Shown: piece by piece, positions 1 to 56,791 of the stretch
How the letters are laid out: every line of letters starts with the position of its first letter
How positions within the stretch are numbered: the first letter of the stretch is position 1
Virus record (IMG/VR): IMGVR_UViG_3300048079_000081
Coordinates: 1 to 61,789 of that record
Length of the DNA: 61,789 nt
Source of the DNA: a virus
Lineage: Duplodnaviria > Caudoviricetes
Reading direction: 5' to 3' (one strand)
Notes under the pieces: model-generated
Seen by the model: only the letters and a program-made list of their open reading frames with translations
Databases searched by the model: none
What the model was told of the DNA's origin: nothing
Translations under genes and position numbers: made by a program

Positions 1-126
1 GCGCGCTCGAGGCTGGCCGGACGCCTGACGCCGAGCTCGCGGCCGTCTGCCGGCTGACCGGACTCTCGCTCGCGGACGCGGCCGACGAGGGGGCCCGCCT
101 CCGCGCCACGCGCGCGCCCAGGAGGT
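1..126. repeat. Terminal direct repeat, left copy (circular assembly overlap)
   Basis: Identical to 61650-61775; the match ends where the first 19-bp palindrome begins. Confidence 0.95.
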
Positions 127-156
127 CGCGCTCCGGGAGCGCGAGGAGGTGATCCG

Positions 157-576
157 GTGCGGTGGCCGTTCAAGCGCCGGGCTCCCACGGTGGAGCTCGC
201 GCTCCCGGAGCGCGATGAGCTCCAGACCGACCTCGAGACGGCCCGCCTACTGGCGGTTTCCCGGGAGGCGATCCAGTCGAGCGACGAGCGCCTCGAGCGC
301 CTCCGGCCGCTCCTCGACACTGCCCGCCTCGAGCTCCGTGGCGCGCGCTCCACCGGTCTGACGCCAGCGCGGCGGGGCCAGGTGCTTCTCGACCTCGACG
401 CCTGGGCGCAGCGGGTGGACGGCTTCGCGGCACGAGCGGCCGAGGGGTCTCGCGCTCCAGGAGCGCGATCCCTGCGGCGGTTGGCCCTGGCCTATCTGCG
501 GGGGCTCCATGACCTCGACGAGCGGCAGGCGGGCCTCGTGCTCGACGCCTACCTGGCCGAAGGGGAGGGCCGGTAG
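157..576 (+). CDS. hypothetical protein
   Basis: GTG start after GAGGAGG; contains two palindrome copies. Confidence 0.7.
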   Translation: MRWPFKRRAPTVELALPERDELQTDLETARLLAVSREAIQSSDERLERLRPLLDTARLELRGARSTGLTPARRGQVLLDLDAWAQRVDGFAARAAEGSRAPGARSLRRLALAYLRGLHDLDERQAGLVLDAYLAEGEGR

Positions 577-881
577 TGCTGCCGGCACGCGATGGCTTCC
601 TCGGCTGGACGCTCCTGGCCCTCGACGAGGCCGCCAAGGGCGGGCTGAGCGATGCGGAGCTCGCCGAGCTCTCGACCACCCACCGCGCGGCGCTGGCGAT
701 GTGGCACCGCGAAGGGGTTCTGCCTCACGCGGCGGCCCTGGCGCTCGTGATCCTCGCCTGCGGCGGATTGCCCCAGGCGGCGATCCTGGAGGCCGTCTTC
801 CTAACCGGCGCCGGCTATGTGATGGGCCGCGCCGCCTACCCGTGCTCCTGGAGCATGGCCGAGGCCCTCGCCACTTCCTGA
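576..881 (+). CDS. hypothetical membrane protein
   Basis: Start overlaps previous stop; hydrophobic C-terminal half. Confidence 0.6.
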   Translation: MLPARDGFLGWTLLALDEAAKGGLSDAELAELSTTHRAALAMWHREGVLPHAAALALVILACGGLPQAAILEAVFLTGAGYVMGRAAYPCSWSMAEALATS

Positions 882-892
882 GCGCGAGGGGC

Positions 893-922
893 TTCCCTCC
901 CGCCGTCTGCCGGGTGTAGGAT
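893..922 (+). promoter_or_regulatory. sigma70-type promoter TTCCCT-N18-TAGGAT
   Basis: Shares GAGGGGCTTCCC context and 18-bp spacer with the 43731 promoter; palindrome at 925 covers the predicted start site. Confidence 0.5.
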
Positions 923-952
923 GATCGCGCTCCCGGAGCGCGAGGCCCGGCG

Positions 953-1291
953 ATGGCGATGGACCCCTGCCCCATGGAAGACTGCGAGCCCTGCGCCCGC
1001 GCCTCGGGTGGCGTGTGTCTCGTGCACCTCGCGGAGATCAGGCAGGAGTGCGCCATCGCGCTCCAGGAGCGCGATGTGCTCGAGGCCCTGGAGCGCGAGG
1101 TGCTCGCCTGGGCCGACGAACGGCGCCAGGAGCTCGAGGGTGAGCGGTGGTGCGCGGCCTGCGGGCTCCGTTTTGGGCGTCACCTGCGAGACTGCCCGCG
1201 CCCTGGCACCGGGCTTATGGTCTACACGATCGACGACGTGCTCGCGGCGAACGCCAGGCTTCTGGCGGCGCGCGAGGCGAGCAGCGCGTGA
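953..1291 (+). CDS. hypothetical Cys-rich (Zn-binding) protein
   Basis: CxxC motifs (CEPC, CAAC..H..C). Confidence 0.7.
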   Translation: MAMDPCPMEDCEPCARASGGVCLVHLAEIRQECAIALQERDVLEALEREVLAWADERRQELEGERWCAACGLRFGRHLRDCPRPGTGLMVYTIDDVLAANARLLAAREASSA

Positions 1292-2097
1292 TCGGACAAG
1301 CCGGGGAGAGGGGAAGGCCGGGGGGAGGCGGGCACCGCGCTCCTGGAGCGCGGCCCAGCTCGCCGCCCTCCGCGCCTACCCTCGAGCCGAGCCTAGCCTG
1401 GCCGCCCTACGTGCGCCTGGGCCGCGCGGCCGGGGACCTCGCGCTCCAGGAGCGCGACGCTTGGCCCCCGACTGGCACCTGGCACGTGGTCGCCCACCTC
1501 GACGAAGCCGAGGGCGCTGCGCGGCTCGAGGAGGCGCCCGCTCGGGCGCTGCCCGGGGAGGAGTGGCGGGACCGGCTGCTCGCGGAGCTCGCCGTGGCTC
1601 GCGTCTGCGGGGCCCGCCCGCCGGCCGCCGGCGCCGCCGTGGTGCACGCCGCGAGCTCCTGCCGCATCGGGATCAAGACGGCGGCGGCGCCCGTGGCCGA
1701 CCTCGTGCTGCCGGCCGTTGCGCCGCTCGAGGTGGACTTCCTCCTGCTGGCCCGGGTGGCGCTCTCGCAGCCGGAATCGCGCTCCAAGAGCGCGACCGCG
1801 CCCGATCGGGTCCTCTGCGTCGTGACGCTGGTCGGGTGGACGACGCCGCGCGTCTTCCGAGAGCGGTCGATGGTGAGGCAGACGGAAGGGGGCCAGGTCC
1901 GCACCTTCCGGCGCCAGCACCTCTGGCCGGTCGGTTCGTTCCTCGAGCGCCTGCGGTCCGAAGGGGTGGCGCTGCCGCGCTACTCCTCCTGCCTTTCTTG
2001 CCGCGTGCTCCTCTGGCCGGCGCACCTGCTCCTCTGCGGCGCCGCCGGGTGCGCTGCGATCCACGAGGCGCGCGTCGAGGCAGCCCGCCGTGGCTAA
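1288..2097 (+). CDS. hypothetical protein, possible degenerate PD-(D/E)XK fold
   Basis: GTGA overlap start; IGIKT...DFLLLARV...LVGW pattern; C-terminal CxxC. Confidence 0.55.
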   Translation: MIGQAGERGRPGGGGHRAPGARPSSPPSAPTLEPSLAWPPYVRLGRAAGDLALQERDAWPPTGTWHVVAHLDEAEGAARLEEAPARALPGEEWRDRLLAELAVARVCGARPPAAGAAVVHAASSCRIGIKTAAAPVADLVLPAVAPLEVDFLLLARVALSQPESRSKSATAPDRVLCVVTLVGWTTPRVFRERSMVRQTEGGQVRTFRRQHLWPVGSFLERLRSEGVALPRYSSCLSCRVLLWPAHLLLCGAAGCAAIHEARVEAARRG

Positions 2098-2332
2098 CTG
2101 CAAGGGCTGCGGGGCGCTCATCGTCTGGGCCGAGCTCGCCAACGGGAAGCGTGTGCCGCTCGACCCACGCCCGGCCGTCTACGACGTGACGCTGGCGGGC
2201 GTCGCCCACGAGGCGCTCACGGCGGAGCGCGCGGACCGCCGGCGCTACATGGTGTCGCACTTCGCCACCTGCCCGGAGGCGAACCGGTTTTCAGGAGCCA
2301 GCAAGGGCCGCAAGGCCGAGGAGGGAAGGTGA
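2090..2332 (+). CDS. phage Zn-binding hypothetical protein
   Basis: CKGCGALIVW...GKRVPLD...SHFATCP, a pattern common in small phage proteins. Confidence 0.8.
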   Translation: MANCKGCGALIVWAELANGKRVPLDPRPAVYDVTLAGVAHEALTAERADRRRYMVSHFATCPEANRFSGASKGRKAEEGR

Positions 2333-2718
2333 TGGAGGAAGCCAGGGTGGAGTCGCTACCGTGCGCGCTGAGCCCGGAAGAGGTACGCCAGCGTGGCGAG
2401 GCGGTCGCGCGGCTGCTCAAGGAACGCGACGACCTCGACTTCGAGACGAAGCAATACGCCAAGCAACGCCGCGAGGAGCTCGGCGAGCTCGAGCTCGCGA
2501 TTGCGCGCCTGGCAATCCAGATCCGGGAGCGCCAGGAGTACCGGCCGGTCGAGGTGGCGTGCCTCCGCAACCCGAGCGACGCCACGGTGGTGTGGGTCCG
2601 CAAGGACACCGGAGAGGTGGTGCGCCAGCGGCCCATGACCGAGGAGGAGAAGCAGGAGCGCCTTCCCTTCCCGGATGCCCTCGCCCGAGAGGCACTCGAC
2701 GAGGACACGGAGCACTGA
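2329..2718 (+). CDS. phage hypothetical protein
   Basis: Coiled coil then R.DTGEVVRQRPMT.EE.Q..LPF; SD GGAGGG. Confidence 0.8.
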   Translation: MMEEARVESLPCALSPEEVRQRGEAVARLLKERDDLDFETKQYAKQRREELGELELAIARLAIQIRERQEYRPVEVACLRNPSDATVVWVRKDTGEVVRQRPMTEEEKQERLPFPDALAREALDEDTEH

Positions 2719-2892
2719 GCGCGCGGGGCGTTGCCAGCCTAGAGGGCCCGCCTTCAATGAAAAGTCAGTAACCACATTACCGACAAAGGCCGAGCCGCTC
2801 GCGCTCGTTATGAAGCGAGCGCCAAGGGACGCTCCAGGCGCGCTCGGTATGAAACGAGTGCCAGGCGCAGTGCCTCACGTGCTCGTTACCGA

Positions 2893-3270
2893 GTGAGTGC
2901 CGTTGGCCGCGCCGCAATCACTCGAAAAAACACGAGTGCCAATGGTCGCGCCGCGAGAGTTCGGTATGCCGTTAGCGCCAAGGGCCGCGCAGCCATCACT
3001 CGCAAAAGTCAGAAACGCCGCGCCAGAAAGCTCAACGCCATAACCGAGCCCGATGCCGTTCCGCCGTTCCTTGGCCGTTGTTACCTTTGCGGCAAAATGA
3101 TTGAGCGCCCAGGAGCGCACCTCGACCACCTCGTCCCACTCTCCAGAGGCGGCTCGCACATTCGAGACAACCTCGGTTGGGCCTGCGTGCGGTGCAATCT
3201 CCAAAAAGGAACCCGTTCGGTGGAGGAGTTTATAGCCGTGCTCGCCAGCCTGGTTGCCATCTTGGATTGA
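2893..3270 (+). CDS. HNH endonuclease (frame open upstream to 2761; start uncertain)
   Basis: CYLCG...HLDHLVPLSRGGSH...NL..AC.RCN..KG; basic N-terminal repeats; lower GC than flanks. Confidence 0.9.
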   Translation: MSAVGRAAITRKNTSANGRAARVRYAVSAKGRAAITRKSQKRRARKLNAITEPDAVPPFLGRCYLCGKMIERPGAHLDHLVPLSRGGSHIRDNLGWACVRCNLQKGTRSVEEFIAVLASLVAILD

Positions 3271-3283
3271 GTGGGTCTATGGT
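3254..3283 (+). promoter_or_regulatory. sigma70-type promoter TTGCCA-N18-TATGGT upstream of terS
   Basis: -10 lies 6 nt before GTG 3290, a leaderless geometry. Confidence 0.6.
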
Positions 3284-3289
3284 CTGGCC

Positions 3290-3778
3290 GTGGGTGACCA
3301 ATCGGCCACGCCTGGCAGCCGCGACCGCGCCGCCCGGATCAAGCCGCCCAAGGGCTCGAAGGGCGGGAAGCCTCGGGTCGAGCTCTCGGCGGACGAGATC
3401 GAGAAGTTCATCGCGATCGGCCACACGTTCGCTGATGCAGCCGAATACTTCGAGGTCGCTCCCAAGACCCTCTACAACGAGCGGAAGCGCCGGCCCGAGC
3501 TCGACGCGGCCGCCAAGCGCGGCCTGATTCGCAGGAAGGAGCGGATCTGGGCGTGCCTTTGGAGTCAGGCGCGGGCCGGCAACGTCACCGCGGCGATCTA
3601 CCTCGACAAGAAATGGGGCGGCGGGCTTCCCCCCGAGCGCCTCGAGCACACGGGCGCAGACGGCGGGCCGCTCCAGATCCAGCTCGGCCGGGCCAAGGTC
3701 GAGGAGCGCCTGCGCAAGCTGCAAGAGCTCGCGCGGCGCAAGGCGGATCGCGTTCCAGGAACGCGAGGGGCGAAGTAG
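3290..3778 (+). CDS. terS: putative terminase small subunit (HTH)
   Basis: HTH (FADAAEYFEVAPKTLY), A..GNVTAAIYL.K and LEHTGADGGPLQI tail typical of TerS-like proteins; position. Confidence 0.75.
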   Translation: MGDQSATPGSRDRAARIKPPKGSKGGKPRVELSADEIEKFIAIGHTFADAAEYFEVAPKTLYNERKRRPELDAAAKRGLIRRKERIWACLWSQARAGNVTAAIYLDKKWGGGLPPERLEHTGADGGPLQIQLGRAKVEERLRKLQELARRKADRVPGTRGAK

Positions 3779-3784
3779 ACCGCC

Positions 3785-4210
3785 GTGCCGAACGTCTACA
3801 ACCGCGGCAAGGCGAGGATCGGAGGGGCGCTGGACCTCGCCACGGGCGCGCTCCGGCTCCTGCTCCTGCGCACGACCTACACGTTCGACCCTGACCAGGA
3901 CTTCGTGTCGGCGCTCGTGGCGCACGAGCTCACGGTCGGCGGCTACGCACGCCAGAATCTCACGGGCCTGACGCTGGTCGAGGACGACGCCCTCAACCGC
4001 GCCGAGCTCCGCGCGAACGAAGTCGCGTTCCCTAGCCTGACCGCAGGGCAGACGATCGGCGGAGCCGTGCTCTTCGAGAACACGGGCTCGGACGCCACCT
4101 CGAGCCTGCTCGCCTTCTACCCGGCCAACCCACTCGCGACCGCTGGCCTACCTGTAACGGTGCGCTTCTCTGCGGCCTCGCCGGGCGCGGTCCTTCAACT
4201 CAACGACTAG
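3785..4210 (+). CDS. putative virion structural protein
   Basis: LRLLLL..TYTFDPD.DFVS...EL..GGY.R..L pattern seen in phage minor virion proteins. Confidence 0.7.
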   Translation: MPNVYNRGKARIGGALDLATGALRLLLLRTTYTFDPDQDFVSALVAHELTVGGYARQNLTGLTLVEDDALNRAELRANEVAFPSLTAGQTIGGAVLFENTGSDATSSLLAFYPANPLATAGLPVTVRFSAASPGAVLQLND

Positions 4211-4219
4211 GAGTGGCCG

Positions 4220-4735
4220 ATGCCGAAGCCGGCGACCGTGGTCAACGCCATCGTGGCCTACTGGCAAGCGAACCCTGACGGAGGCACTCAAGCCGGCGTC
4301 CTCGCCGCGATGCAGGCGACCGGGATCTCGAGCGCCAACGCCACGGCGCTGGGTTCCGCCCTCCTCCAGGAGCTCTTCGGCCACGCCGTCCTCAACGGGT
4401 CCGCCTACGCCGACCTGAAAACGCGAATCGGCGTGGTTGGGGTGCTCCGCCTGAGCCGGGCCCTGCGCGCGGCAGCGGCCCTCGGCCCCACGTTCTTTGA
4501 CCTCCTCCGCAAGGCCGACCTCCTTGGCGCGGTGTCTTTGCTCACCACACAGATCGCCGCCTTCGACCAGCGGCTCTCCGATCTCGCCGCCGGCGTCGCG
4601 TCTGCATCCGCCCTGCCCGCGGGCGCCGCGCGCGCCGAGCTCCTCGCCTCTGCGGATGCGATACGCCTCGAGCTCGAGGCCGCCCGCGCGGCGGCGGTCG
4701 CCGAAGCCGCTCGGCTCACGGCTGAGGCGGCATGA
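4220..4735 (+). CDS. hypothetical Ala-rich helical protein
   Basis: SD AGGAG; in operon. Confidence 0.7.
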   Translation: MPKPATVVNAIVAYWQANPDGGTQAGVLAAMQATGISSANATALGSALLQELFGHAVLNGSAYADLKTRIGVVGVLRLSRALRAAAALGPTFFDLLRKADLLGAVSLLTTQIAAFDQRLSDLAAGVASASALPAGAARAELLASADAIRLELEAARAAAVAEAARLTAEAA

Positions 4736-6411
4736 CGGTCGTCCTCACCCAGGACGAAGGCTCCCGCACTGCCGGCGGCGGCACGATCGCCTCGATCACC
4801 GCCGGCGTCCTCGTCAATACCGCCGATCTGACGACGGCCGCGATCGGCGACATCGTGGAGATTTTCGGCAGCTCCACGCTGGCGAACAACAGCTTCTTCT
4901 CGATTGCGGTGATTGCGGTGAGCGGCGGGCCTGACTCCTACACGCTCACGCCGACGCCCACGAACCAGGGCGCCTCGGGCTCGGCCCGCCGACTCAACCG
5001 GACCAACATCCTCCAGGCGGCGGTGGCGGTGACCAGCTTCGCGACCCTGGGCGCCGGCGCCGGCGCGGTCAACTTCCTCCGTTCGGATGCGGCTGCCTTC
5101 GTGACGAGCGGTGTGCGCCGGGGAGATCGGGTCATCGTCGCCGGTGGCGGCGTGAACCAGGGCGCCTCCTACGTGCTCGAGGTGCTGAGCGAGGATGTGC
5201 TGGCGCTGGTGACGGTGGGCGGAGTCGCCTGGTCCACGGCGGCCGTAACCACCGAAACCGTGGCCGTCCGCTCTGGCCAGCACCGGCTCACGCCGACGGA
5301 CGAGGCGACCCACTCGTGGGCGGCGGCCCTGGCGGCGGCGGTGACGAACGCCGCGCCCGCCGCCGCGATCATCGAACGGACCAGCATCATCGCGCTCACG
5401 ACACCAAACCGGCGCGACCTCGTGCGCGTGCACGGCATCAGCCGCGTGATTGTCGCGCAGACGAGCGCGCTCAACTCGACCGTGTGGGATTCGCTCGACG
5501 AGGTGGTCGAAGCGGCGAAACCGTTTGCGACCGGGACCGGCGTCTTCAACTACGAGATCCAATCCCCCGACCCGACGGCCGGCTTGACGTTGAACCTCGG
5601 CGACGACGTGGGCAGCACCGACCCTCGCGCCTGCGACCGCGGCTCCTACTGGATCGGCTTCTTCTTCCCGAGTGCGGACGGAGATGCGGGCCGCACGGCG
5701 GTCAACCTCTACGGGTCCGTGTTCGACCTCGGGAGTCGCATCGCCTTCTTCGGTCTGGGCGCACAGATCCGGGGGGCGATCGTGCGTCCGCGCCACGACT
5801 GGAGAGAGGGCGTGGAGATCGCGAACCTCATCGTCTACGGCGCCGCGCCGCTCGTGCCCTTCGGCGGGCCGGCGCTTGCGCAGAACATCGTGGTCGGGCG
5901 CTCGACCCAAACCGGCTCCATCATCGCGAACAGCACCATCATTGGGCTATCTCTAAGCGACCAGGCGTTCTCGCCGTTCGTCACGCTTTTCGGCGGCAAC
6001 GTCGATTACCTCGACCCGGTGGAAGACTACGACATCACCGACCTCGCGGATACGACCAGCAACTCGGCGCGGAAGCTCTACACGTTCAACCAATCTTTCA
6101 CCTCCAAGGAGCTCGGCGGACCCATCGTCGCTCTCACCGTCGAAATCTACGAGGTGGACTCAGGCGGCGGGCAGACGCTCGTCTTTGCGGGCACGACCGA
6201 CGCGAACGGTCAAATCAACGCAGGCGCCGGCGTCGCGCTCGTCCGGCAGACGAGCACGAGCAACGTGGTTTCGGAGTTCACCCACCGCCTCGTGCTGCAA
6301 GGCGGAGGCTTCCGCATACATGACGAAGAGATCGAGATGACCTCGCCCCGCCTGGGCAGTTACCCCGTCGCGCACGCGAGCCCGCACTACGAAGGGGACC
6401 TGGACGAATGA
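4732..6411 (+). CDS. putative virion protein (beta-rich, 559 aa)
   Basis: ATGA overlap; Thr/Gly/Ser/Val-rich. Confidence 0.7.
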   Translation: MTVVLTQDEGSRTAGGGTIASITAGVLVNTADLTTAAIGDIVEIFGSSTLANNSFFSIAVIAVSGGPDSYTLTPTPTNQGASGSARRLNRTNILQAAVAVTSFATLGAGAGAVNFLRSDAAAFVTSGVRRGDRVIVAGGGVNQGASYVLEVLSEDVLALVTVGGVAWSTAAVTTETVAVRSGQHRLTPTDEATHSWAAALAAAVTNAAPAAAIIERTSIIALTTPNRRDLVRVHGISRVIVAQTSALNSTVWDSLDEVVEAAKPFATGTGVFNYEIQSPDPTAGLTLNLGDDVGSTDPRACDRGSYWIGFFFPSADGDAGRTAVNLYGSVFDLGSRIAFFGLGAQIRGAIVRPRHDWREGVEIANLIVYGAAPLVPFGGPALAQNIVVGRSTQTGSIIANSTIIGLSLSDQAFSPFVTLFGGNVDYLDPVEDYDITDLADTTSNSARKLYTFNQSFTSKELGGPIVALTVEIYEVDSGGGQTLVFAGTTDANGQINAGAGVALVRQTSTSNVVSEFTHRLVLQGGGFRIHDEEIEMTSPRLGSYPVAHASPHYEGDLDE

Positions 6412-7652
6412 GGTACTCGACCCACGCTTTCCAGGAGAACACCCACCTGCTCGGAGAGTTCCGAGCGGGCGCGGTGCTGGGCGAGATCAGCATCAAACTC
6501 ATTCGGTTGTCCGACGGTGCACAGTTCACGCAAGGCGGCGGGCAGCTCACGAACGACGACTGCACGGAGGTCACGGGCTCCAGCTTCGCCGGCTTCTCGA
6601 CCTACAAGTGGCCGATCAACAACATCGCGACGGGCTCGCGCCCGGCGCCCGGCACGTTCACCGACTATTCGTACATCATGGTGGACTCCGTGACCGGCCG
6701 CACCCACAAGGACAAGCTGCTCGTCGGTGGCTACCCCGACCAGATCGCGATCCAGCGGTTCCTCGGCGCCGTCTTTATCGACACGGTGAGCGGGACGCCT
6801 GGGACCACGTTCCCGACTGGCACGCCCGAGCAGCCTGTCTCGAACCTGGCCGACGCTCTGACCATCAGGTCCACCTTCAACCTCCCGCGCAAGCTCAACC
6901 TGCACGGCACGCTCTCCGGCGTTACGTCGGACCTTTCGCGCTTCGCGATCGAGGGCGACAACCCGGAAAGCGACCGAATCACCTTCGCCGCCGGCGCGAA
7001 CCTGAGCGACGCCAGCTTCCTGCGGATCAACCTGCGCGGCGTTCTGAGCGGGGCCATCGTCGCAACGGAGTGCATCGTCGGCGGCAGCGCGCTCACCGTC
7101 ACGGGTGTGCGCGGCGTGCTCTTGACCTGTCTCCTGCGCGGCACGATCGTCCCGGCGGCTGGGCAGTCGCTGCTCATGCTCCAGGTGGCGAGCGACGAGC
7201 TCTTCGGCACCGTGATCGACTACTCGGGCACCGGTGCTCTCACGAGCGTGGCTGCGGCCGCCACCTTCGGGGAGTGGCTCATTCGCAACATGACCGTGGC
7301 GAACCAGCAGCTCGGGTGGTCGCTCGGCTCGGGGACGCTCCGGCTCGAGGTGAGCAACACCAACGGGCTCGTTTCGCTCACCGGGATTGGCGAAGTGGAC
7401 GATCAGAGCCCGGGCACCTTCACCAGCTTCTCCGATGCGGTGCTCAAGCCTTCGAGTGTCGAGGACGGGCGTGACGGGTCGGTCGGCCGGCGGCGCGTGA
7501 ACAAGACGGTCCCCGCGCAGTGGACGCTTGAAGTCTTCGACGCGGACGACGAGACCGCACTTGCGAGAACGTACAACATGCGAAAGGGCGGTTCGCCCGT
7601 GAGCGACTCGAACCCGGTGACAACCGCCGTGGACGAGTTCGACCCGGTGTAG
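6408..7652 (+). CDS. putative virion protein (possible beta-helix, 414 aa)
   Basis: GTPEQPVSNLADALTI resembles a beta-helix cap; ATGA overlap. Confidence 0.7.
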   Translation: MRYSTHAFQENTHLLGEFRAGAVLGEISIKLIRLSDGAQFTQGGGQLTNDDCTEVTGSSFAGFSTYKWPINNIATGSRPAPGTFTDYSYIMVDSVTGRTHKDKLLVGGYPDQIAIQRFLGAVFIDTVSGTPGTTFPTGTPEQPVSNLADALTIRSTFNLPRKLNLHGTLSGVTSDLSRFAIEGDNPESDRITFAAGANLSDASFLRINLRGVLSGAIVATECIVGGSALTVTGVRGVLLTCLLRGTIVPAAGQSLLMLQVASDELFGTVIDYSGTGALTSVAAAATFGEWLIRNMTVANQQLGWSLGSGTLRLEVSNTNGLVSLTGIGEVDDQSPGTFTSFSDAVLKPSSVEDGRDGSVGRRRVNKTVPAQWTLEVFDADDETALARTYNMRKGGSPVSDSNPVTTAVDEFDPV

Positions 7653-8270: not shown

Positions 8271-9791
8271 GTGGGCACTCTGGCGCGCAAGCTGGGCAAG
8301 CTGCGGGCCGAGGAGAACCCGCACCTCCTCGACGGGCTCGACCCGGACGGCTACGGCGCGCTGGTGCTCGAGCTCTTCGATTGGGAGGGGACGTGGGCCC
8401 GGCCCGATCAATGCGAACCCAAGGGTTCGTGGCGCAAGTGGTTCATCAAGGGCGGCCGTGGATCGGGCAAGACGCGGACCGGGGCGGAGCTCGTGAGGAA
8501 GAAGGTGGAGACGAGCCAGGCGCTCCGGGTGGCGCTCGTCGGGCGCACGTCGGCGGACGTTCGCGACACCATGATCGAAGGGGAGAGCGGGCTCCTCGCC
8601 GTGGCGAGCCCTGGGAACCAGCCGCACTACAACCCGAGCCTCCGGCGGGTCGAGTGGAAAGGCACGATGGCCGTGGCCGGCCGCTACTACCAGGGCCGCA
8701 GCTACGAACGGGGGCCCATGGCCGTGGCGTTCTCTTCGGCCGAGCCGGACCTCCTGCGGGGCCCCCAGCATGACTTCGCCTGGGCGGACGAGATCGCGGC
8801 GTGGTCCTACGCGACCGAGACGTGGGACAACCTCATGCTGGGCCTGCGGATCGGGCAGAATCCGCAGGTGGTGGTGACCTCGACGCCGCGACCCATCAAG
8901 ATCGTGCGCGACCTCGTGGCGGACCCTCAGACGATCGTGACGAACCCGAGCACGTTCGCGAACATGGAAAACCTGGCGCCGGCGTTCGCGGCCGAGATCC
9001 TCCTCAAGTATCAGGGCACGGAGAAGGGCCGCCAGGAGCTCTACGGCGAGCTGCTCGAGGAGGCCGAGGGGGCGCTGTGGCGGCGCGCCTGGCTCGAGCG
9101 CGACCGGGTGGGCATCACGGAGGTCCCGACCCTGGCCGAGCTCGTGGTGGCGATCGACCCAGCCGTGAGCGCCGGGGACGAATCGAACGAGACGGGCATC
9201 GTCGCCGTGGGCGGCGCCTACGTGGCCGACGCCACTTCCCAGGGCCGGCCCGCCATCCACGTCTACACGCTCCGGGACGTGTCCGGCCGGTACTCGCCGG
9301 ACGGCTGGGCCCGGCGGGCGGTGGAGCTCTACGACGAGCTCAAGGCCGACGCCATCGTGGCCGAGCGGAACCAGGGCGGCGACATGGTGGAGCACACCAT
9401 TCGGACCGTTCCCCACCCCGGTCGCCCCGTGCCGGTCTACCTCGTGAGCGCCAGCCGGGGCAAGCGCACCCGGGCGGAGCCAGTCGCCGCCCTCTCCGAG
9501 CAGGGCCGCTACCACCACGTCCGCACGCGCTGGGCGGACGAATACGATGAGGACGGGGCGCTGCTCTACGACGCGCCTGGCGTGCCTCGCCGGCGCGAGG
9601 TCCCGAACCCGATGCCGGAGCTCGAGGACCAGCTCTGCAATTGGGAGCCAGGGCTGGCGGAATCACCCGATCGCATGGACGCTACAGTCTGGGGCGCGAC
9701 CAAGGTAGCCGAGCGCGGCACGCGGGAAGAGTTTCGGCTCGCCCGCCCGCTGGGCGAAAGCGACCGCGCCTCCAACTGGAGGACCCGATAG
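8271..9791 (+). CDS. terL: terminase large subunit
   Basis: Walker A GGRGSGKT, LRGPQ, Walker B AWADE, TSTP, nuclease VVAIDPA and SPDRMDA. Confidence 0.97.
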   Translation: MGTLARKLGKLRAEENPHLLDGLDPDGYGALVLELFDWEGTWARPDQCEPKGSWRKWFIKGGRGSGKTRTGAELVRKKVETSQALRVALVGRTSADVRDTMIEGESGLLAVASPGNQPHYNPSLRRVEWKGTMAVAGRYYQGRSYERGPMAVAFSSAEPDLLRGPQHDFAWADEIAAWSYATETWDNLMLGLRIGQNPQVVVTSTPRPIKIVRDLVADPQTIVTNPSTFANMENLAPAFAAEILLKYQGTEKGRQELYGELLEEAEGALWRRAWLERDRVGITEVPTLAELVVAIDPAVSAGDESNETGIVAVGGAYVADATSQGRPAIHVYTLRDVSGRYSPDGWARRAVELYDELKADAIVAERNQGGDMVEHTIRTVPHPGRPVPVYLVSASRGKRTRAEPVAALSEQGRYHHVRTRWADEYDEDGALLYDAPGVPRRREVPNPMPELEDQLCNWEPGLAESPDRMDATVWGATKVAERGTREEFRLARPLGESDRASNWRTR

Positions 9792-11198
9792 GTGGCGTCG
9801 AGGAAGACCGCGAAGGCCACGCTCCCGGAGCGTGCTCAGGACCGCCCGGCGCGCCGGCTTTCGAGCGACGAGCTCGGGAGCACCGGGCTGCGGATCTACG
9901 CCGGCCGGATCGACGAGGAGTTCCGGCGGGAGCTCCGCGGGAAGCGGGCGTTCCAAGTCTTCCGCGAGATGCGCGACAACGACCCGGTGGTCGGCGCCGT
10001 GCTCTTCGCCATCGAGATGTTCATGCGCCAGGTGTCGTGGCGCGTCGAGCCCGCGAGTCAGAAAACCGAGGATCAGGAGGTGGCCGAGTTTGTCGAGGGC
10101 GCCTTCGGCGACATGACCGAATCGTGGCCGGACACGCTTTCCGCGATCCTTTCCTTCCTGCCCTTCGGTTTCTCACTTCACGAGGAGGTCTACAAGCTAC
10201 GCAACGGACCGAGCCGCGATCCCGAGGCCGACTCCATGTTCGACGACGGCCGGATCGGCTGGCGCAAGCTGCCGATCCGTGCCCAGGAAACGATCGACCG
10301 CTGGGATCTCGGCGAACACGGCGAGCTCCGCGCGGCGGAGCAATTCGCGGCGCCGAGCTACCGGCGCGTGACCATTCCCTTCGACCGGTTCCTGCTCTTC
10401 CGCACCACGACGGAGAAGGCCAACCCCCAAGGCCGCTCCATGCTGCGCAACGCCTGGCGGCCGTGGGTGTTCAAGCACCGAATCGAGGAGATCGAGGGCA
10501 TCGGCATCGAACGCGACCTGGCCGGCTTGCCGGTTGCGCACGTGCCGGTCGAGCTCCTCATGGCCGACGCTTCGCCCGCCGACCGGGCCCTGGCCGACGA
10601 CCTCGCGAAGCTGGTGCGGAACATCCGACGCGACGAGAAGGAGGGCATCCTCTTTCCGCGCCTGGTCACCAAGGAAGGGCACGAGCTCTACAAGCTCGAG
10701 CTGCTGACCACGGGCGGCCGCCGCCAATTCGATACCACCACGATCATCAACCGCTACGACGCCCGGATCGCGATGACCGCGCTCGCGGACTTCATCGTGC
10801 TGGGCCATGAGAAGGTCGGTAGCTTCGCGCTCGCGAGCTCGAAGACCAACCTGTTCGCGCTGGCGCTGGGCGCCTGGCTCGACTCCGTGACCGACGCCTT
10901 CAACCGCTACGGCATCCCGCGTCTCCTCGAGCTCAACACGTTCACCGGCTCGAGGCCGAAGCTCGTCCACGGCGATGTGGAAACGATCGACCTCCAGGAG
11001 CTCGGGGCGTTCATCACGGCTCTGGCCGGCGCCGGGGCCCCGCTCTTCCCGAACAAGGAGCTCGAGCGGTGGCTCCTCGACCAAGCGGGCGCGCCGACGA
11101 TCGAGGCGGAGGCATCGGAGCTCGAGGTGCCGGAGCTCGAGCAGGACCCGGACCCGGAGCTGCCGCCGAAGCCCCCGGAGGCGCCGGAGGAGATGTGA
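9792..11198 (+). CDS. portal protein (DUF935/Mu gp29-like)
   Basis: Follows terL; EMRDNDPVVGA, NPQGRSMLRNAW, GIERDLAGLP, GSFAL. Confidence 0.9.
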   Translation: MASRKTAKATLPERAQDRPARRLSSDELGSTGLRIYAGRIDEEFRRELRGKRAFQVFREMRDNDPVVGAVLFAIEMFMRQVSWRVEPASQKTEDQEVAEFVEGAFGDMTESWPDTLSAILSFLPFGFSLHEEVYKLRNGPSRDPEADSMFDDGRIGWRKLPIRAQETIDRWDLGEHGELRAAEQFAAPSYRRVTIPFDRFLLFRTTTEKANPQGRSMLRNAWRPWVFKHRIEEIEGIGIERDLAGLPVAHVPVELLMADASPADRALADDLAKLVRNIRRDEKEGILFPRLVTKEGHELYKLELLTTGGRRQFDTTTIINRYDARIAMTALADFIVLGHEKVGSFALASSKTNLFALALGAWLDSVTDAFNRYGIPRLLELNTFTGSRPKLVHGDVETIDLQELGAFITALAGAGAPLFPNKELERWLLDQAGAPTIEAEASELEVPELEQDPDPELPPKPPEAPEEM

Positions 11199-14437: not shown

Positions 14438-14469
14438 ATCGCGCGGAGCGCGAGTGTGAGGAGCCCACG

Positions 14470-19020: not shown

Positions 19021-19064
19021 CGTCGCGCTCCGATAGCGCGAAGTGGAGAAGGGGAGGGGAAAAG

Positions 19065-19520: not shown

Positions 19521-19523
19521 TTC

Positions 19524-40019: not shown

Positions 40020-40027
40020 GTGTCGCC

Positions 40028-40746: not shown

Positions 40747-40793
40747 TGCCGTGGTTGCACTTGCCGGCGCTGGCGTGGTAGGACGGCACTTCC

Positions 40794-42697: not shown

Positions 42698-42990
42698 GCG
42701 ATCTTCGCAGGGCGTGCTTCGCGGACGCATTGACCCTCATCGAGCTCCTGGCCCGCTGCCGGCCGGGCGCGCCCGTGGTCTCGCGCGACGTGGCCGAGGC
42801 GCTCGAGTGCCACCTGCGCACGGCCCAGCGGTGGCTCGCCGTGGCCGAGGGCTTCGGCTACGTGACCGGGCGACCCGCGGGCCCGCACCCGTACTACACG
42901 CGGACGGCGCTAGGCACCGCGCTCCCGGAGCGCGACTTCGGAAAAGGCCCGAGCCCGGGTGGCGTTGCACCTCCCGAGCCCGGGCGTTGA
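42694..42990 (+). CDS. putative winged HTH protein
   Basis: SRDVAEALECHLRTAQRWL......GYV. Confidence 0.7.
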   Translation: MSDLRRACFADALTLIELLARCRPGAPVVSRDVAEALECHLRTAQRWLAVAEGFGYVTGRPAGPHPYYTRTALGTALPERDFGKGPSPGGVAPPEPGR

Positions 42991-44165: not shown

Positions 44166-44458
44166 TGCCGCGCGAGCAGATCGATGTCTCCGTCACCGTG
44201 GAGATCCTCGGCGTGAAGTGGACGCTGGTCGGCTTCAAAGCCGTGGCCGAGCTCGCGGCGTTCCTCGAAGAGCACGCATCGCTCCGAGAGAGCCAGACCA
44301 GGCGGCTCTTTGACGAAGAGCGCGACCGCGAGGCAGAGCGCGCCCGCGAGGCCGCGGCCCGGCTCACGTCCTACGTCGAACCGTCTGCGCTGCGCGACGC
44401 GCCTCCTCACCCCGACCGCGAGAGTTCGATGCTACGCGGCGACGGCGGGGCGGCATGA
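44165..44458 (+). CDS. hypothetical protein
   Basis: TGATG overlap. Confidence 0.6.
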   Translation: MPREQIDVSVTVEILGVKWTLVGFKAVAELAAFLEEHASLRESQTRRLFDEERDREAERAREAAARLTSYVEPSALRDAPPHPDRESSMLRGDGGAA

Positions 44459-46334: not shown

Positions 46335-46567
46335 GCGCCGGCGGGCCCGAGGTCCCCGGGCCGGGCGTCCGTCCGCCGGCGGCGATCGTCACCTTCGAGT
46401 GCCCGCGGTGCTCTCACCTCTGGAATCAGAAGGTGCCGGTGCCTGTGGCACCCGAGCTACCTTGCCCGCGCTGCCCGGAGAACGCCGCGCGCCCCGTGCG
46501 CACGGTACAGGCCGGGTGGAAACAGAAACAACGCGCCACTCCTCCGAGCGAGCGGCGCGGACGCTGA
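46331..46567 (+). CDS. Zn-ribbon protein
   Basis: FECPRC.H...CPRC. Confidence 0.65.
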   Translation: MSAGGPEVPGPGVRPPAAIVTFECPRCSHLWNQKVPVPVAPELPCPRCPENAARPVRTVQAGWKQKQRATPPSERRGR

Positions 46568-46726
46568 CCGCCGGGAGGTCCGGCGGCGAAGAGAAGTCCG
46601 ATACAGAAGGCCGAACATACCCCAGAGCGGGGGCCTGCCCGCGTGGAGCGTGCGGGCCTCCGCTTCACTCGCGCTCCTCGAGCGCGACCACCTCGCGCTC
46701 CTGGAGCGCGATAAGCGAGGCACCCC

Positions 46727-47290: not shown

Positions 47291-48132
47291 GCCGCAAGGT
47301 TCGCGCTCCTGGAGCGCGACCGCGCAGCGCCTCGGAAACCACGAGCCGGATCTTCGAGGCGCTGCGCCTCCGCTTCTGTGACCGCTACGGCTACGCGCTC
47401 GTCGAGGAGATCGAGCCGCCGGGCACCGGGCGCCGCTTCGACGCGCTCGCGGTCGGGCTCTGGCCCTCCCGCGGCTGCCTTCTGATCGGCGTCGAGGTGA
47501 AGGCGACCGAGGAGGACCTGCGCCGCGAGCTCGCCAACCCCGCGAAGGCGGACGGGCTCTATCGGCGCTGTGACCTCTGGTACCTGGCGGTGCCGGCCGA
47601 GCTCGAGGCGCAGGCGCTCGGGCCTACGGTGCCGGACTCCTGGGGCGTGCTCGTGCTGCGCGGCGAGAAGACGCTGCGCGAAGTGCGCAAGCCGCGCCGC
47701 CACGAGGCGCTCGTGGATCGCTACCTCCTGGCGACCCTCCTCCGGCGCCACGAGGACGCGGAGGGCACTGAGCGTCGCGTTCGCGAGGAGAAGAGGTACT
47801 CCGATGGCTATCACCAGGGCCAGGAGAGGGCGGCGCGCGAGGTGGCGGCGGCGAAGGAGGAGGCCCAGGAGCTCCGCCTCGAGCGTCACCGCTTCGAGCA
47901 AGCCTCGGGCATCGTCTTCGCGCGCTGGGAAGCCGACGTGGGCCAGAAGCTCGGCGCCGCCGTGGCCGCGCTCCGGGGCCGGAAGGCGGCCGGCGCCGTG
48001 GGCGCGCTGCGGATGACCGAGGGCCGCCTCGTCGAGGTGCTCGAGGCTATCCGCAAGGCGAAGGAAGCGATCGAAGCCGTGACGCCGGGGGAGCTCGAGG
48101 ACATCGCGCTCCAGGAGCGCGAAGCTCCGTGA
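47287..48132 (+). CDS. MmcB-like PD-(D/E)XK nuclease (start uncertain)
   Basis: EE...RRFDA.AV.LWPSRG....GVEVK....DL.REL..P.K......CD.WYL. Confidence 0.75.
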   Translation, partial: VGRKVRAPGARPRSASETTSRIFEALRLRFCDRYGYALVEEIEPPGTGRRFDALAVGLWPSRGCLLIGVEVKATEEDLRRELANPAKADGLYRRCDLWYLAVPAELEAQALGPTVPDSWGVLVLRGEKTLREVRKPRRHEALVDRYLLATLLRRHEDAEGTERRVREEKRYSDGYHQGQERAAREVAAAKEEAQELRLERHRFEQASGIVFARWEADVGQKLGAAVAALRGRKAAGAVGALRMTEGRLVEVLEAIRKAKEAIEAVTPGELEDIALQEREAP

Positions 48133-48557: not shown

Positions 48558-49648
48558 CCGAGGCGACGCTCCTCGTGGGCGACGCCCTCGAGCGCCTCCG
48601 CGAGCTCCCGAACGGCATCGCCCAGACGTGCATTTCTTCTCCGCCTTATTGGGGGCAACGCGACTACGGCACGGGGGCCTGGGCGGGCGGCGACCCCGCG
48701 CACGCCCACGACCGCGTGCTCTCCCGGGCCGGCCGTGGCGGGAGCGGCAGTACCCCGAAGCGGTCCGCCTTTCCGCGCGACGTGCCGGCGGCCGCGTGCG
48801 CCTGCGGCGCGCGCTACTTCGACCAGCAGCTCGGGCTCGAGGCGACGCCGGACGCCTGGGCCGCGCGCCTCGTGGAAGTCTTCGCCGAGGTGCGGCGCGT
48901 GCTCCGGCCGGACGGGACGCTTTGGCTCAACGCGGGTGACGCCTACGCCGGCGGCGCCTCCGGTAACGGCTCCTCGGGTGCTCGGCGGCCGCACGGGCTG
49001 GCGCCGAAGCAGCTCCTGGGCCTGCCCTGGCGTCTGGCGTTCGCCTTGCAGGCGGACGGGTGGTGGCTCCGCTCGGACCTGGTGTGGGCCAAGCCGAACG
49101 CGCTGCCGGAGAGCGCCCGCGACCGCCCCAGCCGGGCCCACGAGTACCTCTTCCTGCTGGCGGCGCGCGCCCGGTACTACTACGACCCGGACGCGGTGCG
49201 CGAGGTGCCGCGCTACCTCGAGCCGGACGCGCCCGAGGAATACGAGCGCCTCGTGGGCAAGAGCTACTACGACCACGGCGAGGACCTGGCCCAGGGGATG
49301 TCGCAAGCCAGGGCGCCCACCTGGCGCGTCGCATCGCACCCCAAGGGCCGAAACCTGCGGACCGTGCTCGTGGTGAACACGCAGCCGTCGCCGCTGGCCC
49401 ATTACGCCACGTTCCCGGAGCGCCTCGTGGCGCCGTGCATCCTGGCCGGCTCTCGCCCGGGCGACCTCGTGCTGGACCCCTTCGCCGGGACCGCGACCGT
49501 GGGCGTGGTGGCCCTGCGCCTCGGGCGCCGCTTCCTCGGCGTGGAGCTCCACCCGGGCCAGGCCGAAGGCGCCCGCGCCCGGCTCGAGGCCGTGGCCCCA
49601 CTCCTGGCGAAGGTTTCGCTTGATCCGGCTCCCGGGCCCGTGGCATGA
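48542..49648 (+). CDS. N4C/N6A DNA methyltransferase
   Basis: GDALE.L, SSPPYWG.RDY, W.KPN..PES..DRP, HYATFP, VLDPFAG. Confidence 0.92.
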   Translation: MDHPVTEATLLVGDALERLRELPNGIAQTCISSPPYWGQRDYGTGAWAGGDPAHAHDRVLSRAGRGGSGSTPKRSAFPRDVPAAACACGARYFDQQLGLEATPDAWAARLVEVFAEVRRVLRPDGTLWLNAGDAYAGGASGNGSSGARRPHGLAPKQLLGLPWRLAFALQADGWWLRSDLVWAKPNALPESARDRPSRAHEYLFLLAARARYYYDPDAVREVPRYLEPDAPEEYERLVGKSYYDHGEDLAQGMSQARAPTWRVASHPKGRNLRTVLVVNTQPSPLAHYATFPERLVAPCILAGSRPGDLVLDPFAGTATVGVVALRLGRRFLGVELHPGQAEGARARLEAVAPLLAKVSLDPAPGPVA

Positions 49649-49754: not shown

Positions 49755-50087
49755 ATGCGAAGCAAGGGCCTCGAGCCCGCGAGCCGTGTGCGTCGCGCTC
49801 CTGGAGCGCGAGGTGAGCACGCCCCCGCCATCGGAGATCGCCACTTCGAGTTCTACCGCGCCAAGGATGGCTGGCGGTGGACCTTCTGGGCGGAGAACGG
49901 GCGCAAGCTGGCCGACGGCGGGCAGGGCTACTCGCGCCTGATCGACGCGGTGAACGGAGCCAAGGCCGTCACGGCGACGCACACCGCCTTCGCGCACGTG
50001 CGCGGCAAGCTGCGCCAGTTCCGGCTCCACGCGCCGAGCACGTACCCGACTACCCGCAAGACATCGCGCTCCGGGAGCACGACGTAG
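49755..50087 (+). CDS. YegP/DUF1508-like protein
   Basis: FEFYRAKDGWRW...AENG..LADGGQGYS; SD AAGGAGG. Confidence 0.8.
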   Translation: MRSKGLEPASRVRRAPGARGEHAPAIGDRHFEFYRAKDGWRWTFWAENGRKLADGGQGYSRLIDAVNGAKAVTATHTAFAHVRGKLRQFRLHAPSTYPTTRKTSRSGSTT

Positions 50088-53872: not shown

Positions 53873-54052
53873 ATGAGCTACGACACGTGGAAGACTGCGG
53901 AGCCGGCGCTCGAGGAGCTCGGGGCCGCCTGCCCGGATACCTGCGGCGAGGTGGACCTGTGCGCCGCTTGCGCCGATGAGCTCGAGGCGTACGTCGCGCT
54001 CGTGGACCTCGCGACCCCGGAGCGCGAGGAGGAGCCGGATGTCGCGTTCTGA
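53873..54052 (+). CDS. small hypothetical protein
   Basis: SD AAGGGG; MSYD.WK..EP. Confidence 0.65.
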   Translation: MSYDTWKTAEPALEELGAACPDTCGEVDLCAACADELEAYVALVDLATPEREEEPDVAF

Positions 54053-54341: not shown

Positions 54342-54348
54342 GTCGGGC

Positions 54349-54624
54349 ATGAGCAAGACGCTGCGCACGGTCCGTGTGATCGACCTCACCCGCGACCCCA
54401 TGACCGGCGAGAAGATCGCGCTGAGCCCCTCCGAGCTCGTGCCTTGCGTCTGCTGCGGGAAGGGCTGCGGCAAGCTCCACGAGCTCAACACGGGCCACCG
54501 CGTCGGTTCCGAGTGCGCGAGCCTCCTCGAGACGCTCTCCGCGCACGGCGGCGGCGCCGATTGGGCGCGCATCCTCCAGGCTTCCAAGAAGCAGATCGCC
54601 TTCTTCGCGGTCGTGACCGCGTGA
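54349..54624 (+). CDS. hypothetical Zn-binding protein
   Basis: C.CCGK...VGSECA. Confidence 0.7.
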   Translation: MSKTLRTVRVIDLTRDPMTGEKIALSPSELVPCVCCGKGCGKLHELNTGHRVGSECASLLETLSAHGGGADWARILQASKKQIAFFAVVTA

Positions 54625-54924
54625 TGGCCAAGCGCCTCCGCCTCGAGTGGAGCCGCCACCTCGCAGTCTGGACGGCGCTAGCCGGAGAGCTCCGCTACTC
54701 CATCCGCCTCCTACCAGGGCCGCGGCGTGACCCTGCGCGTGGGCTGGGCCTCGTTTCCGCGCGCGCAGTCATGGCTCTGCGGCGGCTTCGCTCACGTGCG
54801 CCAGGCGAAGCGCGCGGCCGAGCTCATCGCGCGCGCGGCACGACCGGCTGAGGCCGCCGCCGACCTCGCCCGCGCCGCCTCGGCTACAGGCCCGGGAGCC
54901 GCGCCGTGGCGGCAGCGAGCCTAG
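54624..54924 (+). pseudogene. possibly frameshifted small gene
   Basis: Protein-like N-half in frame 54624 and C-half in frame of 54727-54924; switch near 54705. Confidence 0.35.
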
Positions 54925-56008
54925 CCTCGGCGATCTGGTGGTACCGGGCCTCACGCTCCACGCCCACGTAGCCGAAGCCCTCCGCGCGCGCCGCGAGGAG
55001 CGTGGTGCCGGAGCCCGCGAAGGGGTCGAGCACCACGCCCCCGGGCGGCGTGACGAGCCGGACGAGCCACCGCAGGAGCGCCAACGGCTTGACGGTCGGG
55101 TGGTCGTTGCCGCGCCCGCGCTCCGACCGGCTCGCCTTCGCGCAGTAGAAGAACCGCGCGGCGGTGCCGGCGCCGCCGTAGCTCACGTCGGGCCCGCGCC
55201 TGCGCGTGATCCCGTAGGAGCTCGGCGTGTACGTCAAGGCCGGGGTCTCGGGCAGGTTTCGCCGCACGGCGGTGCCGTCCGCGCTCTCGCCGAACGCCGC
55301 GAACGCCTCGAGCACCTCGGGGCCCCCGTCGTGCGCGACGTTCGCGGGCCAGCGGCCCGGCGGCGGCGGGCCTGCGCGGCAGCCGTCCACGTTGAGAGCG
55401 CCCGTGCCGTGCTCGAGGACGTTCGCCGCGACCGTGCCGGGGAACGGCTTGCGCGCCACCAGGATCGGCTCCCAGGCGGGCTTGAGCCCGGTGCCCCAGC
55501 CCTGCCACGCCTGCGCCTCGGCCGTCGCCGGGGCCGTGACCTGCGCCGCCTTCAGGCGCTCCTCGACCGTGTGCGAGGAGACGCCCGCGCCGAAGGCGGC
55601 GCCCTCGCCGCCCGGGTGGAGGTGGTAGCCTGGGCGGGCCAGCTTGTCGCCGATCACCGCGCGCGTGGCGCCCGCCGCCTTGTCGATCGCCTTCGACACG
55701 TCGAGGCTCTTGGGGAAGCCGGTGCCGTATAGCCAGAGCACCGTGTCGCGGAGCTCGAAGCCGGCGTCCTCGATCGCGCACGCGATCCGGTGGTGGGTCC
55801 GCGTGCCGCCGAACGCGAGCAGGTGCGCGCCCGGTTTGAGCGCCTCGAGCACGGCACGCCAGGTGGCCGGCTGAAACGAGACGCCGGCGGAATCCCAGCC
55901 TTGCCCCATGAAACCGAGCTCGTAGGGCGGGTCGGTCACGCAGCTATCGAGGCCGTGCAAGCCCGGGAGCGCCTCGAGACAGTCTGCCCGGAGGAGCTCC
56001 TCCCGCAT
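54884..56008 (-). CDS. N6A/N4C DNA methyltransferase
   Basis: DSCVTDPPY, GFPKS, LKPAWEPI, HPTVKP, VLDPFAGSGTT. Confidence 0.93.
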   Translation of the reverse strand: MREELLRADCLEALPGLHGLDSCVTDPPYELGFMGQGWDSAGVSFQPATWRAVLEALKPGAHLLAFGGTRTHHRIACAIEDAGFELRDTVLWLYGTGFPKSLDVSKAIDKAAGATRAVIGDKLARPGYHLHPGGEGAAFGAGVSSHTVEERLKAAQVTAPATAEAQAWQGWGTGLKPAWEPILVARKPFPGTVAANVLEHGTGALNVDGCRAGPPPPGRWPANVAHDGGPEVLEAFAAFGESADGTAVRRNLPETPALTYTPSSYGITRRRGPDVSYGGAGTAARFFYCAKASRSERGRGNDHPTVKPLALLRWLVRLVTPPGGVVLDPFAGSGTTLLAARAEGFGYVGVEREARYHQIAEARLAAATARLPGL

Positions 56009-56027
56009 GGGCGCCGACGCTACCCGC

Positions 56028-56243
56028 TCAGGCCGGGCGCCGCAGGTAGCCGTGGCCGAGCTCCGGGAGCTCGACTGAAACGGAGCCGTTGTGGCGCATC
56101 TCGAACCGCACGGTGATGCGGCCGCTCGAGGGGTCGAGCGCGGAGACGGTGCCCACGCGCCCCTCCTCGACGAGGCCGCTGAAATGGTTTTCGAGGGCGC
56201 GTGTCGCCGTGACTTGCGCGCCGAGCTCGAGCAAGAGGCCCAT
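56028..56243 (-). CDS. small SH3-like hypothetical protein
   Basis: SD GAGGAG; G..V......G.VG.V......V.F. Confidence 0.65.
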   Translation of the reverse strand: MGLLLELGAQVTATRALENHFSGLVEEGRVGTVSALDPSSGRITVRFEMRHNGSVSVELPELGHGYLRRPA

Positions 56244-56388
56244 GGGTGTCTCCTCGGGTGGTGGCTCGCGCTCCTGGAGCGCGATAGTGGGTGCCCCGCG
56301 CTGGCGTGCCGGTGACGCTACGGCTGCTCGCGGCCGAGCACCCGGAGGCAGGCGCAGAGGAAGCGCCGGAGCCACCGCTCGGAGCGCG

Positions 56389-56604
56389 TCACGCCGCAAG
56401 CTCATCGCGCTCTTGGAGCGCGAGCTCGCCGGCCGCCGCGTGGAGGCCGACGGCGACCACCTCGCGGAGCCGCTCCGAGGGGATCGGCAGGGCGAAGCCC
56501 TCGAGCTCCACGCCGTAGCTCGGGCGGTAGTCGCGCTCGAGGCGGCCGACAGTGAAGCCGCCGTTCGTGGTGGTGACCGCGACCAGGGTGCCCTTGCGGA
56601 TCAT
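56389..56604 (-). CDS. small hypothetical protein
   Basis: SD AAGGGG; palindromes at 56405 and 56622. Confidence 0.65.
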   Translation of the reverse strand: MIRKGTLVAVTTTNGGFTVGRLERDYRPSYGVELEGFALPIPSERLREVVAVGLHAAAGELALQERDELAA

Positions 56605-56791
56605 CGGTGCCCCTTTCGGGCCCGCGCTCCGGGAGCGCGGTGGTGGTGGAGGGATCGGCGACCGGGAGCCCTGCGCTTCTTCAACCTTCGGGGCCGACCT
56701 GCCCCTGCGTGCTCTGCTCTGCTTGCTCCCCTGGGCCGTGACGCGGTGCCGTTGCTAGCTTCCGCCGTCGCCGTTCCTGGCCACGTGCTAC

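Follow-up and report, generated by a model that had tools for sequence, protein, structure and literature searches.

A 19-bp palindrome repeated throughout a phage genome, tentatively read as a hairpin element at cistron junctions

Introduction

Since 2015, palindromes repeated across whole genomes have come to notice in several actinobacteriophage clusters; what they do is still unknown. According to the sections of the original report that deal with it, the 17-bp palindrome TGTTCGGNNNCCGAACA of the Cluster O mycobacteriophages (Corndog and its relatives) occurs in 34 copies of unknown function, for which the authors propose a dimeric binder uninvolved in transcription initiation (PMC4351075); in the later literature retrieved, only a 2019 genome announcement takes up this repeat, and the part of it concerned repeats the description. 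The corresponding sections on Microbacterium Cluster EG describe an 18-bp inverted repeat, GATCAACCNNGGTTGATC, in 8-10 copies that lie 14-22 bp upstream of starts (PMC7302621). Here we analyze a palindrome of this kind, the 19-bp motif TCGCGCTCC-N-GGAGCGCGA, in the complete IMG/VR phage record IMGVR_UViG_3300048079_000081 (G000; 61,789 bp, ∼70% G+C), the whole length of which is referred to below as the window.

As far as the published descriptions extend, the window motif resembles the Cluster O repeat in its form, that of a short, perfect palindrome whose centre is free and whose arms are invariant; in its number, above 30 copies per genome, denser among non-structural genes; in occupying intergenic, near-5'-end and intragenic sites that are mostly promoterless; and in belonging to apparently lytic phages with ParB-domain proteins, some copy-flanked indels and a slight sense-strand bias at the centre. 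The Cluster O repeat is absent from the host genomes checked for it, and no multi-copy host of the window motif came up among the genomes scanned below. The two sequences are unrelated, and Cluster O has 7-bp arms around a 3-nt centre, whereas the arms here are 9-10 bp around a 1-nt centre. Cluster O sites are mostly conserved in position, in genomes that are very close, as opposed to 4 to 5 of 46 here, and in-frame indel turnover and compensated variants are not reported in the sections that describe them. The Cluster EG palindrome likewise lies upstream of starts, in short gaps of non-structural genes, and is kept despite diverged flanks, but it has only 8-10 copies, none of which is reported within coding sequence in the relevant sections. 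An initial annotation of the window, made from the sequence alone, had called it a candidate undescribed system, a label that no longer fits given that both palindromes were already in print. What is new is the sequence, denser and longer than those of Clusters O and EG, together with the comparative evidence presented below.

Many copies of a short motif at actinobacteriophage gene junctions are also seen with the Cluster A stoperators and the Cluster K and EF start-associated sequences. Stoperators differ from the window motif in being asymmetric and transcription-oriented and in occurring in temperate phages with an immunity repressor; repressor sites of this type were rejected because the window motif is symmetric and no integrase or repressor family was found among the open reading frames (ORFs) scanned, which were about 80 with Pfam and 20 with PHROGs out of a larger complete set. 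The start-associated motifs differ in sitting at the ribosome-binding site (RBS) itself. Among cellular repeats, repetitive extragenic palindromic (REP) elements and Rickettsia palindromic elements are dispersed and hairpin forming, those of Rickettsia inserting in frame into genes, and they are longer or tied to a REP-associated tyrosine transposase (RAYT). The window differs in that its scanned ORFs yielded no RAYT and the genomes searched yielded no array of copies in a host; mobile hairpins of the REP/RAYT type were rejected for want of a Y1/HUH transposase family in those ORFs and of a multi-copy host among those genomes. Partition sites of the parS/ParB type were rejected as well, the ParB_N domain of this phage being fused to a methylase with no helix-turn-helix (HTH) seen and no ParA found.

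The window and the single relative that we recovered add pairing-preserving variation, spacing variants that keep the stem, and rapid indel turnover including in-frame insertions. This evidence makes the choice between a hairpin, a duplex protein site and a selfish element directly testable and ties palindromic repeats to phage mosaicism.

Results and Discussion

The motif occurs in 19 perfect copies in the window and in none of 100 dinucleotide shuffles. Allowing up to three mismatches gives 46 copies (19, 11, 9, and 7 with zero, one, two, and three mismatches, respectively, the last seven being doubtful members of the set) against a shuffle mean of 0.66 and maximum of 4, which bears out the figure of about 45 copies in the initial annotation. 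In a logo of 39 sites the palindrome extends weakly to 21 bp, with A before it in 19/39 and T after it in 14/39, and shows no conserved flanks past 21 bp. An exact-pattern scan of viral contigs returned one other record, G001, a 60-kb genome syntenic with the window in which aligned blocks are 65-89% identical and the motif has 19 copies (7 perfect and 12 variants). When the ParB-methylase protein described below was used to look for further relatives in viral and metagenome contigs, the matches were G001 itself and otherwise just unrelated contigs of 42% GC.

The motif is selected as nucleic acid, not as protein. Thirty sites are centred inside coding sequences (CDS) of our own gene set (98 genes), and they are divided over all three reading frames, as previously noted, encoding ALxER, RAPGAR, and SRSxSA in 18, 7, and 5 cases. 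Synonymous-codon shuffling within the called genes leaves ∼0.8 perfect in-CDS copies where 12 are observed; over the whole window it leaves a mean of 7.79 perfect copies (7 of them in untouched non-CDS) against 19 observed, and 28.8 against 46 at up to three mismatches. No perfect in-CDS copy survives a codon-order shuffle. Selection therefore acts at the nucleic-acid level, as had been proposed.

Copies are concentrated at gene junctions. Of the 46 sites, 28 are no more than 50 nt away from a called gene boundary, a zone covering 22% of the genome (P = 1.5e-8), and 17 are equally close to a stop (15.9% expected; P = 4e-4). Centres fall between -50 and -10 of the longest-ORF start at 11 of the 46 (6.1% expected; P = 8e-5); this test and the stop-based one are free of the RBS-score bias considered below. 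Density is 2.33 copies/kb over positions 1-4300, 0.22 over 4301-32000, 1.16 over 32001-57000, and 0.21 from 57001 to the end, so that the structural module is 5 to 10 times poorer in copies. Both the preference for gene ends and gaps and the regional pattern (dense in the early region and at 32-50 kb, sparse among structural genes) agree with the initial annotation. Tens of copies with invariant arms, intergenic and intragenic, rich in non-structural regions and mostly promoterless, place the motif in the Cluster O type of repeat. A promoter or terminator reading was rejected for lack of conserved flanks and of a T-tract.

No perfect copy was found in 400 sampled Actinomycetota genomes. A scan of all species gave scattered matches in many phyla, and among the 120 loci listed there was one perfect copy each and, with up to two mismatches, a maximum of two copies (5/120 loci with two). 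A host repeat or operator is accordingly rejected as far as tested, there being no multi-copy host among the genomes scanned. None of the 120 loci listed is homologous to the window, which removes related prophages from consideration, and the genome-scan matches listed show no array-like clustering of the kind expected of a CRISPR-repeat mimic. Rfam 15 gave no match in the window at gathering score. One further genome (G004) has three motif copies, all inside one 2-kb repeat.

Differences between copies fall at particular positions and tend to preserve pairing. In sites with one or two mismatches, 17 of the 29 mismatches affect either the outermost pair (positions 1 and 19) or the loop (9 and 11; P = 2.5e-5). 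Over the two genomes taken together, the 25 sites with at least two mismatches contain seven mirrored double changes, and 7/7 keep the arms complementary (null mean 0.95; 0/5000 simulations reach 7); the types are few (C1/G19, T6/A14, and A4/T16), so the independent events number fewer than seven. Stems of 6-8 bp are also kept at junctions where the spacing of the arms differs, at 14439 in the window and at 21566 and 30013 (rotated coordinates) in G001, the last of which carries a compensated C8>A/G12>T. Position 14439 had been listed among the junction copies; it does lie at a gene junction, between stop 14437 and start 14470 (14439-14453), but is a deletion variant, TCGCGC-GGA-GCGCGA. Folded as RNA, copies with an 8-bp stem and a 3-nt loop have predicted energies of -13.2 to -13.4 kcal/mol among those modelled, and the 19023 variant (7-bp stem, 5-nt loop) -11.7 kcal/mol. 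On the sense strand, the base at the centre of the motif is biased in composition (A 17, C 11, G 6, T 5).

In a chained whole-genome alignment, 4 to 5 of the 46 window positions are shared with G001 (32224, 36270, 46693, 48104, and perhaps 36538). Clean gaps of 12-24 nt between well-aligned flanks correspond to window copies 925, 1335, 1439, 3748, 34051, and 54009 and also to G001-only sites, the indels thus running in both directions; within genes the gaps are multiples of three, so that proteins differ by 4-8 extra residues close to their termini. Of the 72 homology-block ends, 13 have a copy no more than 30 nt away against 5.5% expected, a figure confounded by gene boundaries. The initial annotation had raised the alternative of insertion or replacement; several sites are clean short indels, and insertion cannot be told from deletion because there is no outgroup (tblastn of two ORFs carrying in-frame copies gave no match in isolated phages). 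With either polarity, comparison of the two genomes indicates that where the motif lies changes far more quickly than its sequence does.

We favour, at a probability of roughly 0.4, the reading that the motif is a compact hairpin-forming element at cistron junctions, a preference that rests on the pairing evidence. An 8-bp G+C-rich stem with a 3-nt loop, at about -13 kcal/mol as predicted for RNA, would stand between the cistrons of early and non-structural operons, as well as at a small number of junctions of late genes, and, because the motif is a palindrome, would be the same hairpin whichever strand is transcribed. We infer that RNA is the active form and that the hairpin acts in the transcript, directly after a stop codon or just upstream of the next RBS, where it might stop exonucleases, label a site for processing, or control whether the following gene is translated, the last being possible because GGAG lies within the 3' arm. 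New copies may be gained, and old ones lost, as short indels and via recombination between copies, and would for that reason stay alike and sit at mosaic junctions. The centres of 16/46 sites lie 10-50 nt upstream of a called start, but the starts of our own gene calls were chosen with an RBS score that GGAG can bias. Several observations weigh against a hairpin: z-scores of single hairpins are modest (-1.6 to -2.8); loop positions C9 (37/39) and G11 (33/39) are conserved and match each other as complements, a requirement for a duplex palindrome but not for a hairpin; the stem is near-invariant and identical in the window and G001, whose aligned blocks are 65-89% identical, although a generic hairpin needs no single stem sequence; and the recurrent C1/G19 and T6/A14 changes (three times each) may represent a few copied events or templated quasi-palindrome correction in DNA and not selection. 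A close rival, ranked second and itself a realistic possibility, is favoured by the near-invariance of the stem and by C9/G11, conserved as they are and complementary; in it, the copies are an array of duplex-DNA sites for a phage-encoded dimeric sequence-specific protein acting after transcription initiation as a roadblock, insulator or genome-wide mark, analogous to stoperators. This fits the perfect two-fold symmetry, which takes in C9/G11 and the flanking A/T, and half-sites that vary only at the dyad centre and outer edge, and it is how the Cluster O authors read their repeats in the part of their report devoted to them (PMC4351075). Two copies (36270 and 36538), moreover, flank the sole sigma-70-like promoter predicted in 32-51 kb (36436-36465, plus strand, a consensus match only), in a divergent region in which these sites have held their positions. 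The best candidate binder is a small winged-HTH-like ORF (42694-42990, plus strand, outside our own gene calls), whose putative recognition stretch, like the motif, is identical in G001. For a dimer on duplex DNA, however, the 7/7 complementary mirrored changes and the spacing variants are unexpected, positions are mostly unconserved between the two genomes, the copies have no promoter context in common, and the assignment of the ORF consists of sub-threshold Pfam matches and a structure model (predicted local distance difference test, pLDDT, 59) too poor for a fold search.

Turnover favours a copied, partly selfish element. A selfish mini-palindrome with no phage function, spreading by insertion or gene conversion and surviving in gaps, gene termini, and ORFan genes, would account for the lineage-specific copies in both genomes, which are 12-24 nt indels and in frame within genes, for the unequal copy numbers (46 in the window and 19 in G001), for the variant subfamilies, for the scarcity in structural genes and for copies at mosaic junctions. 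We nevertheless consider it unlikely and rank it third: the scanned ORFs include no transposase, RAYT or HUH family, insert length is variable with no evident target duplication or target motif, the mismatch pattern is non-uniform in a way that implies constraint, and insertion is not separable from deletion without an outgroup. Equally improbable in our estimation is a related proposal that the 19-24 nt palindrome is itself mobile, copied to junctions and in-frame termini by the recombination functions of the phage, with identical 19-21 bp linkers driving cassette exchange between phages; if true, it would be the smallest self-spreading repeat known in a virus. Very improbable is a role as loading or marking sites for the protein encoded at 44455-45831 (zinc ribbon, ParB_N, and DNA methyltransferase), which would direct modification to phage DNA. 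This protein is 93% identical in amino acids between the window and G001, its gene is the most similar block of the early region (89% nucleotide identity), its N-terminal zinc ribbon is confined to a small clade, and ParB-domain proteins occur also in Cluster O phages (PMC4351075) and in Cluster AL phages, but the stretch that separates ParB_N from the methylase showed neither an HTH nor any other domain for reading specific DNA, and the sites are unevenly spread. The individual copies are distributed as follows.

Toward the left end, perfect copies lie 22 nt upstream of start 157 (126-144), within CDS 157-576 (197-215), in CDS at 450-468 and 1056-1074, and in the intergenic space 19 nt before start 953 (925-943, where G001 has a gap of ∼20 nt). 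The compensated C1/G19 variant at 1335-1353 meets an 18-nt gap in G001, and the perfect copy at 1439-1457, near the 5' end of CDS 1411-2097, is an in-frame indel relative to it. A copy with one mismatch, at a loop position, follows at 1777-1795, and a compensated T6/A14 variant at 3748-3766 forms a 24-nt in-frame indel 8 aa from the C-terminus of CDS 3290-3778. Besides 14439, the structural region has a copy with two loop mismatches directly after stop 19020 (19023-19041), a two-mismatch copy at a gene junction (20478-20496), two variants (23588 and 23630, spanning 23588-23648) in the 5' part of CDS 23515-24015, and a copy with one loop mismatch between stop 24015 and start 24048 (24019-24037). 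The 19023 copy stands at the left edge of a 504-nt segment missing in G001; this segment, 19020-19523, holds one gene and starts with the copy.

Between 32 and 41 kb, the one-mismatch copy at 32224-32242 coincides with a perfect copy in G001, another at 32636-32654 overlaps start 32645, and the perfect copy at 34051-34069 accounts for an in-frame indel of 24 nt in CDS 33761-34084 (minus strand), at its N-terminus. Of the two perfect copies around the predicted promoter, 36270-36288, in a position common to G001, is 23 nt before minus-strand CDS 35117-36256, and 36538-36556 is 39 nt before start 36586. Two overlapping variants (37837, with a compensated C1/G19, and 37853; 37837-37871) are absent in G001, and two perfect copies (38401 and 38550; 38401-38568) bracket a segment non-homologous to it. 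Copies then occur 16 nt before start 38729 (38704-38722, one mismatch), at homology-block ends (variants 39205 and 39269, with a compensated T6/A14 plus a T4.G16 wobble; 39205-39287), 26 nt before start 39603 (39568-39586, perfect), and at 40318-40395, where a perfect copy (40318) is followed by a one-mismatch copy (40377) 13 nt before start 40399. This last pair lies in a segment of ∼1.95 kb (39971-41922) that is absent from G001.

Further along, copy 42917 is in the tail of the winged-HTH-like ORF, and perfect copies lie 16 nt before stop 43725 (43700-43718), in CDS at 47301-47319 and 49793-49811, and 16 nt before start 48129 (48104-48122, a shared position with two mismatches in G001). A tandem pair (46669-46711, one mismatch and perfect, with 46693 common to G001) occupies a long non-coding gap; the same gap contains, at 46532-46559 on the minus strand, a hairpin followed by a T-tract that is the most terminator-like of those in 32-51 kb. 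The remaining copies are a one-mismatch copy 14 nt before a stop (50064-50082), a two-mismatch copy forming a 12-nt in-frame indel relative to G001 (54009-54027), a perfect copy between minus-strand genes (56266-56284), a one-mismatch copy toward the 3' end of a CDS on the minus strand (56405-56423), and an intergenic variant with a compensated C1/G19 (56622-56640).

The initial annotation had named four proteins as possible binders of the motif. The winged-HTH-like product remains plausible, if weak, and is the only recognizable candidate for a specific binder. The protein at 44455 does have a ParB_N domain, as suggested, but is a fusion with a zinc ribbon and a DNA methyltransferase. The supposed ribbon-helix-helix protein at 41880 has a sub-threshold Pfam match and a model of pLDDT 69 with no fold match, and the "arm-binding" protein at 12139 has no family match; neither suggestion was sustained. 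Apart from the 44455 protein itself, its zinc ribbon (CxxC...CxxC, N-terminal to ParB_N) was seen only in the ortholog from G001 and in a single metagenome protein of 56% identity. In G001 the C-terminal tail of the winged-HTH-like ORF's ortholog (14336-14779, minus strand) contains a 75-nt (25-aa) unit three times in tandem, with a fourth copy of the unit ∼850 nt downstream; in the window, these places are occupied by the 19-bp motif instead. A PDB sequence search with the product of 42269-42697 gave no match, and structure-atlas leads for the products of 35117-36256 and 36586-37464 were weak.

The window encodes a large terminase subunit (8271-9791), a Mu-type portal (9792-11198), a MuF-like protein (11195-12142), DNA methyltransferases at 48575-49648 and 54884-56008 (minus strand) in addition to the one with a ParB_N domain, and a Gp157-family gene (34081-34602, minus strand); the majority of its early genes belong to no family. 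Upstream of the terminase, at 4732-7652, are two large ORFs of 559 and 414 aa with high coding scores and no family match, and the G001 sequence is non-homologous to the window there. The window lacks any exact terminal repeat that could be found, and its ends (1-110 and 61618-61789) are contiguous in G001, just as the ends of G001 are contiguous in the window. By this reciprocal contiguity both records look near-complete and circularly permuted, although CheckV estimates 74% and 69%.

The closest isolates are Arthrobacter cluster AL phages, with a portal identity of ∼47%. In Arthrobacter phage Laroye, the first 50 kb of which were searched, we found only five copies of another palindrome, within promoters, and set it aside as a different kind of feature. 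This palindrome, AACAGnCTGTT, occurs at 8390, 30737, 33676, 47306, and 47831 between TTGACA-like and TATA-like hexamers, and its sites look like operator-bearing early promoters.

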